NCBI GenBank assembly: GCA_051294375.1
Contig: CM119266.1
Location: forward strand, 16,424,087-16,488,086
Direction of reading: 5' to 3'
Source: Paraspadella gotoi
Taxonomy: Eukaryota > Animalia > Chaetognatha
Length of the DNA stretch: 64,000 nucleotides
The first letter of the stretch is position 1; the number at the start of each line of letters is the position of its first letter. Positions 42,901 to 45,900 of this stretch are shown here, piece after piece. Below the pieces are notes generated by a model, which worked only from the letters and a program-made list of their open reading frames with translations, ran no database searches and was not told the origin of the DNA. The position numbers and the translations under genes are program-made.

Positions 42901-45900
42901 AATTTGAAGTAAGGAAAGTGAAAATGAAGAATATAGTGAGGGATAGATAAGTTAAGAGTAAGTGAAATGGTAAGGTAAAAATGGTATCTGATTAATCCTT
43001 TCTTACTTCCAACGTTCGCTCTCTACTGCAGGTTTTTCACCAATTTTTTCCAATTTTCAAATTCACTCACTCTCTTCTTCCCTGCCCTTACCTTCACCTG
43101 TCCTCACATCTGGCCACTATCCCTCACTCAATTCTTTGTTGGAAACTCTTTTTCTCTCTCTCTCTCTCTCACTCTCTCTCCAAAAACTGATGTTTGAGAT
43201 AATTGACTCTAATATTTTCACTTGCTGAAGAAGACTTGAAACAGAGTCGAAACATGTCCTTAGAAACTTAAATAAATTGTTGTTCAGAAACGAATTTTTC
43301 GTTACACTCCTTAAGGATAGTACTATATATAAATATAGCCTACTGCGAAAATTAAAAAACATAAAATTAATTTTTTTTACAAATTAATGTCCACTGATGG
43401 TATGTTGTTCATAATTGACTTTTAGAATTTTCGTATGTAACTTTCACTACGCCTTAATCCTCACCCTCTAATTGTTGCCTTTCTCTCAACCCTTTGTTGG
43501 AAACTATCTCACTGATTCACTCTCTCTCTCTCTCTTCCTTACTCTCTCAACTTTTGACTTGCTAAAGCTTAGTACTTCATAATTGTCAAATGCACTGATG
43601 AAGAACAAAATAATGTTCGAAACATGTCTGCATTTAATAATAATAGTAATTCGTTGTGAAAATCAAATATCTGTTTCTAAATTACAGACTTTCACAAAAA
43701 TCAAAATTATAAAGTAATAATAGGTTATATTTGTTTATTTCTAGATCAGCAATGGGGATATATAACTACATGTTCAAACGTTGGACTTCCACCAATTATC
43801 TGCCAGATTGACGTTTTTGCGAGGCTTGGTTTTTCAGCTTTGGCTGGAATATGGAATTTACTTGTACTTATAGTTATCCTATCAATCTGCAGAACACACA
43901 CTGTGGGAATACGAAGATTTATTAAAGAACTGGAAACTGATGGAAAGGTACCGTAACTATACACGTTGAAACGAATTCTACATAAAAACTGTCAAAAAAA
44001 GTATGTTTTACTTTTAGACAGGAAAAAAATATTCGTTGTTGAACTGCGACAGAATTTAAATAGCATATTCCTTTAAAAGCTATGTATACTTGATAGTGTA
44101 TATTGTACATTAATGTAATGTTATGTATATGCATAAACATACTTTTTGATAGGTCATTGAAAACCACTACAGACTACAAGTTATGGACATGAATGTTGAC
44201 ATGTTTTCAATAGTAATGAATGAAGATGCATTGACGGACAGTGACGACGAATATGATTTCTATGAGGGTTCGTGGAATAAAACAGGTATTTTTATAAATT
44301 TATAATCAATCGGATAATAAATAAAGAAATACTATATTTTAATAACAATTAATTAGGCGAAATGAAAATACCATCGATACAGTTGCAGGAAGAAAATGGA
44401 GGGAATAGTATCGAAGAAAATTATACTTCCCACAGAACTTCAAGGAAAATACTAATCAATTATTGAATAAAATAAAATAAAATGTAATAGTTTCCAAAAC
44501 CAAGTCTTTTGTAACAAGTTATCAAATACTGGGTACCCATTTTAGAGTGATACAAAAGAAAAAATTAAAGAAAAAAATATTAAAATAAGAAAACAAGATT
44601 TATTTATAGAAATGATCCCACTATGGCAACGGAAGGACATGTGTGACGCCTGGGGTGAGAGGCATCTCCCGACAGCTGGCGCTCAGGGCTTTGGACCTGC
44701 AGAGACCACTCCATGTCACTGGCGTGTTTATGCCAACACCATCACACTTTAACCAGCGTGACCGTGAGGGGATTGAACCCGGAACTCACGGTTGGTGAAC
44801 GAGTTCTTAGCTGTCCAAGCCAATGGGACGAGTTGAGTTTCACCAAGCTATACGGGAGGCGAATTTAGGATTCGCCACACCACTCTTCTTTTTATCATTA
44901 TGAAATGGATTCAGGGTAAAAGTTCACGTATTTTTATAACTTTAGAACAGTATTTAATAGTCAAACTGAATAATTCTTAATCATTTTCTAATTAACGATC
45001 GATATTTTCCGGAAGATCACTATCGTCAGTAGATTCTTGCAACACGCATTCGAGGCATTCGACTTCACTTGGTCCCCAAAGTGATGAACCACGAATTTTG
45101 AGTGTAAATGACATTCTTATTCGATATTGGAGTATAGAATCCCGACTTGCTTTTACAGGTAACAGAAAAAAAATATATTAAAACTATTAAAGTAAATTTA
45201 TAAAAAGATTGTCAATCGCCAATTGTTCAAAAACGATGACGCTGACTGACCCAGCCAAAAAATAATCTCATTGCTAAGATTGTCAAAGCTTAACTTATTA
45301 AGTTCCTCTAATTCTACTTTAGCCTAAAATTTAGGCTTGATAATTCAACGGTGGGTAACATGCTGGATTATATTTGTTATTTTCTGGGCAGCACAAATGA
45401 TTGTGTATTGGATAAAAAATGATACACAAATACAAGAAGTTTTTCTTGTCGCTATTCCATTAATACTACTACCATTATTATGTTCCGCGATATCTGAAGT
45501 CAATTTCGAAGGAGATAGACTGGTAAAATAAAGTAAAAATAGATTATAATTTATATGTAAGTTAATCGCAGGCGTACAAACGTTTCGAATTAAATGTTAG
45601 AAGCTTCCGACCAATGATTAAAACGCTCAAAATAATTGGTGGGTTAGCTAAGGCTAAAACAAAGAAAATACTTGTTTTCTAAGGCGGGTTTCACAGTCAC
45701 TTTCTAGGTGGCCCAAAAAAATAACTCTGCTATGAATAATTAATTATATAATATATACTTGGGTAGTCGCAGGATTGTGCCCACGTAGTATTGGGCCCAG
45801 AAAATTGGGCCCAGAAAATTGCGCCCCGAGGATTGCACCCACGTAGCATTGCGCCCACATACGTTTGCACCCATAGTATTCAGCCCATGTAAGATTGCGC

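Follow-up and report, generated by a model that had tools for sequence, protein, structure and literature searches.

A predicted type-P5 twister ribozyme within putative miniature LTR elements of Paraspadella gotoi

The locus and its predicted ribozyme

The window, a 64,000-nucleotide stretch of Paraspadella gotoi DNA, is AT-rich, repeat-rich animal DNA. Its plus strand carries two uninterrupted, apparently intronless frames, one GPR137-like (19895-21016), whose identity to the listed named relatives, drawn from several animal phyla, does not exceed about 44%, and one of the Tim17 family (9759-10769), with a weak Pfam match. A papain-family cysteine protease fragment on the minus strand (57575-57826, Pfam E 4e-12) is probably an exon, and units of families A and C, described below, lie just beyond it. 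Repeats in the window include nested long inverted repeats at 22184-29607 (22184-24129 with 27667-29607, 97%; inner pair 24086-24923 with 26220-27052, 96%), giving a foldback-like structure, an abundant repeat whose subunits, some 150-180 bp long, occur in both orientations (1-263, 6743-7091, 13283-13678, 47956-48775, 62238-63706), and an 18-bp tandem array (46325-46800) whose orientation flips midway, producing a long hairpin, and which yields spurious miRNA-family matches.

On the minus strand at 44622-44879 lies a 258-bp unit, termed family C, with ends TGTGG ... CCATA delimited by a target-site duplication (TSD) and by contig ends. The 4-bp TSD is exact (4/4; 5' copy at 44880-44883, 3' copy at 44618-44621, read on the minus strand), and contigs of sequencing run X1 leave the unit into unrelated flanks at both ends (34 at 44622, 87 at 44879). 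Read 5' to 3', the unit opens with a predicted 7-bp hairpin (44858-44876), followed by a tRNA-like segment (approximate limits 44758-44830, from alignment and motif scan) with an exact B-box match at 44779-44769, and then by the predicted ribozyme (44675-44757). The tRNA-like segment of this copy was not recognised as a tRNA by ARAGORN or Rfam; going by its sequence, it would serve as a Pol III internal promoter. A second family C copy, found by alignment at 57271-57407 (minus strand), has neither the tRNA-like segment nor the ribozyme core.

The fold at 44757-44675 was assigned to type-P5 twisters from its best Rfam match, covariation, and a coordinate parse of the minus strand. P5 (44757-44753 with 44679-44675) forms 5/5 pairs, and P2' (44747-44744) pairs with P2 (44727-44724) in 4/4 positions. 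The conserved GA is at 44742-44743, and its G (44743) corresponds by analogy to G45 of the rice twister, for which a general-base role is given in the available text of PMC6154101. T1' (UG, 44741-44740) pairs with CA of the loop (2/2), and a single G (44739) separates it from the P1 segment, an 8-nt self-complementary stretch (44731-44738; 4 Watson-Crick and 4 G.U pairs). UAA occupies 44730-44728, T2 (GC, 44723-44722) pairs with GC of the loop (2/2), P3 forms 6/7 pairs with one U.U mismatch at 44718/44703, and P4 forms 4/4 pairs closed by loop L4 (UCCAAAGC), this stem and loop (44684-44699, by parse and alignment) supplying the partners of both T1 and T2. The predicted scissile bond joins U and A of the UAA loop (44729-44730), following the parse and the U-A cleavage-position rule for twisters in the accessible part of PMC8501958. 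The copy thus shows the type-P5 order P5-P2'-GA-T1'-G-P1-UAA-P2-T2-(P3)-P4-L4-P4'-P5' with both pseudoknots Watson-Crick, and the two marks of a twister, the conserved general-base G (44743) and the UAA cleavage loop (44730-44728), are both present.

These results confirmed the twister fold that the initial annotation had placed at 44757-44675, with order, core bases, and both pseudoknots present and covarying, and the UAA, GA, and L4 loop that it had named as the twister consensus were all parsed on the minus strand. Its type-P5 call stood as well, the location of the motif inside an LTR element having been missed. Its description of every pairing in this copy as essentially intact held for P5, P2, T1, T2, and P4, which are complete, and not for P3, with its U.U mismatch, or for P1, which beside the cut reaches 2 bp at most within one copy and is unstable. 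An 8-bp P1 duplex is possible between copies. According to the available texts of PMC8501958 and PMC6154101, twister P1 has been reported to be dispensable or reducible. Compared with the family majority in contigs, the copy differs at three ribozyme positions (P3, P3 loop, and P1 segment), making it a reasonable but not ideal test substrate, and an assay of predicted self-cleavage using the lone RNA may under-report activity if P1 pairs between two copies. Membership of the motif in the twister class is considered highly probable.

Covariation, model scores, and predicted folds

Counterparts of this fold occur in three further families, A, B, and D. Covariation was analysed on an alignment of 11 copies (6 of 17 sites omitted as damaged or more diverged), in which only T1, T2, and P4 were counted, because P1, P2, P3, and P5 are not in register. 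Pairing is seen in 93.8% of 80 cells, versus 16-42.5% in slid controls, and 6/8 counted pairs change on both sides, a number equalled in 45/500 shuffles. Further pair types were not above shuffles (7 vs 7.4; equalled in 391/500). T1 is CG/CG in family A, CC/GG in B, and UG/CA in C and D, and T2 in family D is AC/GU; these T1 and T2 states are those given in the initial annotation. Covariation across four families, as claimed there, was borne out for T1, T2, and P4. The families are related by descent, and A, B, C, and E (a further relative, see below) align in upstream LTR parts, so the changes represent few compensatory events in one lineage rather than four independent samples. The accompanying claim that P2 to P5 differ in sequence and still pair needs correction for family D, which is without P3, and for P2, which is imperfect in A, B, and D (bulge or C.A pair).

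Preservation of the core was followed in individual copies and in contigs. The core is fully intact in 1/6 parsed family A copies and T1 is kept in 2/6; in contigs of four sequencing runs, the T1 pair at 31532 is kept in 96-99.6% of family A depth. In run X1, the other differences of at least 10% within the family A ribozyme are confined to the P3 loop, one L4 base, and the 5' edge of P5, with none in the P1 segment, UAA, T2, P3 stem, or P4. The same T1-breaking change is found in the two LTRs of the 31-kb element and in the solo LTR at 2510, so elements of this sort may have been mobile despite a weakened ribozyme. A family C variant without the core reaches a depth of about 1,000 in run X8 and has a counterpart in X9.

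Within 401 bases around the site, Twister-P5 (RF02684) was the best Rfam match (22 bits, E 0.019), short of the gathering cut-off of 37.6 bits, which is a database criterion and not a biochemical one. The covariance-model check proposed in the initial annotation was therefore weakly passed, with the right best match and a score below the cut-off. At gathering level, Rfam gave 0 matches in the whole window. Below the cut-off, a family D copy scored 25.6 bits, family B gave only a partial twister-P1 match, the 8 weak Rfam matches of family A included no twister, and no hammerhead match was obtained in Rfam scans of the window. A strict descriptor, composed after the copies had been seen, matched 5 sites in the window, two of them in family D and one in each of A, B, and C, versus 8 in total in 200 block shuffles, and a loose descriptor was non-discriminating (9 matches in the window vs 3-14 across 12 shuffles). 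A model built from 11 copies returned 17 sites at E < 0.001, including the 11 on which it was trained. Pattern scans of metagenome and viral contigs gave 0 matches in either set.

Minimum-energy folding of the 83-nt RNA yields a structure other than the twister (z -0.46). For four copies, the twister helices without pseudoknots lay 5.0-9.2 kcal/mol above the best fold, with a P2 probability of 0.02 or less, and folding of the whole LTR predicts competing structures that hide the ribozyme.

Elements carrying the motif

The family A element at 31421-32073 (minus strand, 653 bp) is complete, with an LTR-internal-LTR layout, a 4-bp TSD, LTRs identical at 229/234 positions, and T1 broken in both. 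Its primer-binding site (31826-31838) begins one base downstream of the 5' LTR and shares 12/13 bases with the published tRNA-Trp site of Gypsy-32_NVi and Helenus-2_SyJa, and a 12-nt polypurine tract (31658-31669) precedes the 3' LTR by two bases. Directly upstream of the twister in the LTR lies a degenerate tRNA-Gly(CCC)-like cloverleaf (31550-31622, minus strand), found with ARAGORN at -ps85. At this relaxed setting, a degenerate tRNA-Gly was called in 2/3 family A LTRs tested, with 8/450 shuffled controls passing; at default settings, ARAGORN called 0 tRNAs in the window. Scans with consensus A-box and B-box patterns gave an exact B box without a tRNA call in family C and only an A-box-like match in family B.

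A second complete family A element (56477-57187, plus strand, 711 bp) has the primer site, polypurine tract, and 4-bp TSD, and its 5' LTR carries the one family A twister that the parse showed to be intact (56574-56646, plus strand). In a third (18115-18563, plus strand), the 5' LTR has lost internal sequence, and the ends tried show no TSD. Solo LTRs of the family lie at 2510-2743 (minus strand) and 61901-62114 (plus strand, ribozyme core partly deleted), each with a 4-bp TSD. A 48-bp tandem duplication is present inside the internal region (31703-31805 and 56805-56909). Two frames of the internal region have no Pfam match, and neither a reverse transcriptase nor an integrase domain turned up among the 67 frames scanned. 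Family A thus has the make-up of a TRIM (two LTRs, primer site, polypurine tract, less than 1 kb, no protein) and, by structure, is arranged like an LTR retrozyme, both of its LTRs carrying a predicted self-cleaving motif.

Family B is represented by plus-strand units at 7681-7935 (twister at 7804-7882), 7154-7421 (L4 disrupted), and 55198-55451 (GA of the core changed), each with a 4-bp TSD. Across families A, B, and C, exact 4-bp TSDs flank 8/10 units (chance about 0.006 each). Unit ends had first been placed partly by means of the TSDs, and were independently confirmed by contig ends: in run X1, 117 contigs leave family A at 31420-31421 and 219 at 31655-31656, and the fixed ends of units recur in contigs of other runs. 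Family A and B LTRs also open with predicted hairpins, of sequences different from that of family C. A complete LTR form of family C or B was not seen, and family C occurs as single units both in the window and in the contigs; nevertheless, we infer that family C is the same kind of element as family A on the strength of shared sequence features, and the unit at 44622-44879 is likely a solo LTR of a high-copy TRIM. That the twister-bearing host is an LTR element is judged quite probable.

Summed contig depth in run X1, which is not copy number, is about 3e5 for family C and 2e6 for the family A LTR, compared with about 1e2 for the flanks, and points to thousands of copies. The depth of the family A internal region is 1.7-7.3e5 in X1 and about a hundredth of LTR depth in X8. 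A sense-strand run of four T is absent from 7/8 A, B, and C units, which is at most compatible with Pol III transcription.

A plain tRNA-derived SINE was rejected on account of the constant 4-bp TSDs, fixed ends, and complete LTR form, and so, on the same grounds, was a Helentron-like identity for family A, with its internal inverted repeat and terminal hairpin. For A, B, and C, a Penelope pseudo-LTR was discarded.

Family D at 34321-34831 (minus strand) consists of two 171-bp direct repeats with a 340-bp period, both of which contain a twister that lacks P3 (one at 34377-34439); by eye, no primer site, TSD, or tRNA-like head was seen there. Its units of about 340 bp lie at 34321-34831, 7560-8122, and 38050-38501, the second of which houses the inserted family B unit at 7681-7935. 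Family D is possibly a repeat of tandem or Penelope type, from which the LTR twisters could have come. Family E (8740-8960, plus strand) is a diverged relative of the family A LTR, about 72% identical over 69 bp, in which the tRNA-like part and P3-P4-L4 are present and the GA-T1'-P1 part is missing. A B-related, twister-like unit at 11263-11420 (plus strand) has a longer P4 and is without a P1 segment.

Proposed cycle, alternatives, and known systems

The stretch between the conserved G and UAA is only 6 nt long in families A and D and 8 nt long in B and C, and in all four families the P1 segment is self-complementary end to end. The palindrome is kept in a diverged family D copy through a both-sided change, and in family C depends on its 4 G.U pairs. 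As a hairpin alone, P1 is stable in no family; its self-duplexes range from -4.3 to -11.0 kcal/mol. Self-complementary loops make up about 14-15% of comparable hairpins in these elements (46/337, 17/116), and the four palindromic cases, coming from related families, are not fully independent. When two copies of the P2'-to-P2 stretch of A, B, or C were co-folded, a symmetric duplex with P1 and P2 between strands was obtained, a gain that is not independent support because any hairpin gains energy as a duplex. A short palindromic P1 in all four families suggests cleavage by two paired copies, by analogy with axolotl hammerheads, which have one base pair and a palindromic tetraloop and, in the accessible text of PMC7229834, cleave far better as dimers. 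Formation of P1 between two copies through the palindrome, as modelled, is given slightly less than even odds. In a complete element, the strand swap would build two ribozymes from halves of both LTRs, so both cuts would require both LTRs; cutting would be efficient only with both LTRs in one transcript, and solo LTRs would be weak cutters.

The preferred reading, with a probability of roughly 55%, is that complete elements work as LTR retrozymes through a circle pathway, modelled on that of plant LTR retrozymes as laid out in the available text of PMC4918200. Transcription by RNA polymerase III would begin at the 5' LTR's tRNA-like segment and run through both twisters, and cutting between U and AA in both LTRs would release an RNA unit about 420 nt long (418 nt from the 31-kb element) carrying 5'-OH and cyclic-phosphate ends, which a host ligase would close into a circle. 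A Gypsy-type reverse transcriptase, primed by tRNA-Trp, would then copy the circle and its integrase would insert the DNA, a Gypsy link being described for animal Helenus in the accessible part of PMC10886601. Circularisation would be needed because the 5' LTR cut removes the terminal redundancy required for strand transfer. Folded as a circle, the cut-to-cut unit has z -1.8 in sense and -2.0 in antisense orientation (40 shuffles), a modest structure that was not used as support. The fuller proposal, that these are the first animal LTR retrozymes, namely tRNA-promoter miniature LTR elements replicating via circles cut by an obligate 'double twister' in which the P1 palindromes of the two LTRs pair with each other, is tentative and on balance doubtful. 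If true, tens of thousands of solo LTRs would be nearly harmless to host transcripts while complete elements would be processed.

An ordinary TRIM cycle might instead use an active twister as a maker of 3' ends, with no circle needed: the 3' LTR copy would replace the T-run terminator of the Pol III transcript, and the 5' copy would be mostly misfolded and uncut, leaving a linear RNA that retains its terminal repeat. The competing whole-LTR folds predicted to mask the ribozyme agree with this, as do the published Helenus LTRs, in which, as far as the available text of PMC10886601 goes, T runs follow right after the B box and which differ in this from the A, B, and C units. Selective cutting would, however, require an extra rule, the sequence being identical in both LTRs, and two-copy P1 pairing would activate both sites together, so we regard this cycle as rather improbable. 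Marginally less probable again is a twister carried as a passenger from a Penelope-like tail or a tandem repeat such as family D, once functional and now dispensable for LTR mobility. Family D does hold a similar twister with no LTR signs seen, and core-damaged A and C variants exist, some of them amplified; against this, most A and C depth retains the core, and T1 and P4 have changed on both sides among the LTR-type families A, B, and C, so pairing was kept after capture.

A small chance is left for families B and C being short self-standing MITE-like or SINE-like units with short terminal inverted repeats and 4-bp TSDs. Their ends are nearly inverted (TGTGGC ... GCCATA), all 5 copies of B and C in the window stand alone as single units, and family C loose-end summaries show no primer site; a collapsed internal region would, however, be hidden in contig summaries, constant 4-bp TSDs with fixed ends do not fit SINEs, and the 5' hairpin, tRNA-like segment, and twister of B and C all align with those of the family A LTR, which is itself seen in complete elements. 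Least probable is a fold that arose by chance or is a non-catalytic structure: sub-threshold Rfam scores and the non-twister minimum-energy fold with its z-score of -0.46 would suit it, and it is opposed by the strict-descriptor count relative to its 200 shuffles and by compensatory changes in both pseudoknots.

Type-P5 twister ribozymes were reportedly described by Roth et al. 2014, whose supplementary hit list could already include such sequences from other animals. The LTR retrozyme reading is best set against several known systems. RF02684 is matched in element order, UAA loop, GA, L4 loop, T1, and T2; it differs in score (22 vs 37.6 bits), in the P3 hairpin present here and not in the Rfam model, and in the P1 segment, which is 6-8 nt and self-complementary here, the Rfam consensus having 16 further positions. 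Plant LTR retrozymes, in the available texts of PMC4918200 and PMC7761336, are likewise non-coding, with a ribozyme in each LTR, a primer site, a polypurine tract, a 4-bp TSD, and solo LTRs. They carry a type III hammerhead, a tRNA-Met primer site, and a unit of about 700 nt, in contrast to the animal host, twister, tRNA-Trp-type primer site, unit of about 420 nt, and tRNA-like segment in the LTR found here; by this analogy, the element would work like a retrozyme and is not placed in the plant hammerhead family. According to a 2020 review (PMC7761336), LTRs, primer site, and polypurine tract are all missing from metazoan retrozymes.

For Helenus / TRIMp3 (Kojima 2024, PMC10886601), no ribozyme is described in the part of the paper available; in its supplement, nine L4-loop motifs gave 8 occurrences, by eye none of them a twister, in text whose line breaks could hide others. 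Helenus ends are TG..CA, as opposed to TG..TA or TA..CA here, where a twister also follows the tRNA-like segment. Family A is a Helenus-like TRIM carrying a predicted ribozyme and laid out like plant LTR retrozymes. In the literature, covered as titles and abstract openings with few subscription papers, no twister in an LTR, animal LTR retrozyme, or dimeric twister was found. Dimeric hammerheads in Penelope-like elements are said to be the subject of a published paper. Within the accessible text of PMC7229834, the dimeric type I hammerheads of amphibians are alike in having a helix of one or two pairs by the cut, capped by a palindromic tetraloop; they belong to another ribozyme class and lie in tandem repeats without LTRs, and cleavage as a dimer is shown for them and would be an extension by analogy for the twister here. 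The Perere-3 T-variant twisters of Schistosoma mansoni, in the available text of PMC8501958, share a weak P1 in an animal retroelement, and differ in belonging to a non-LTR element with the ribozyme at the 5' end and P1 completed by the target site.

The elements would join twister ribozymes, tRNA-promoter TRIMs, and plant LTR retrozymes, each known separately, giving eukaryotic type-P5 twisters a concrete job and extending the LTR retrozyme life cycle to animals. With very high copy number and several diverged families, every step is testable with short RNAs and one RNA sample. A natural two-copy twister, if true, would show a structural behaviour new to the class and would amount to a simple logic gate in the production of circular RNA.
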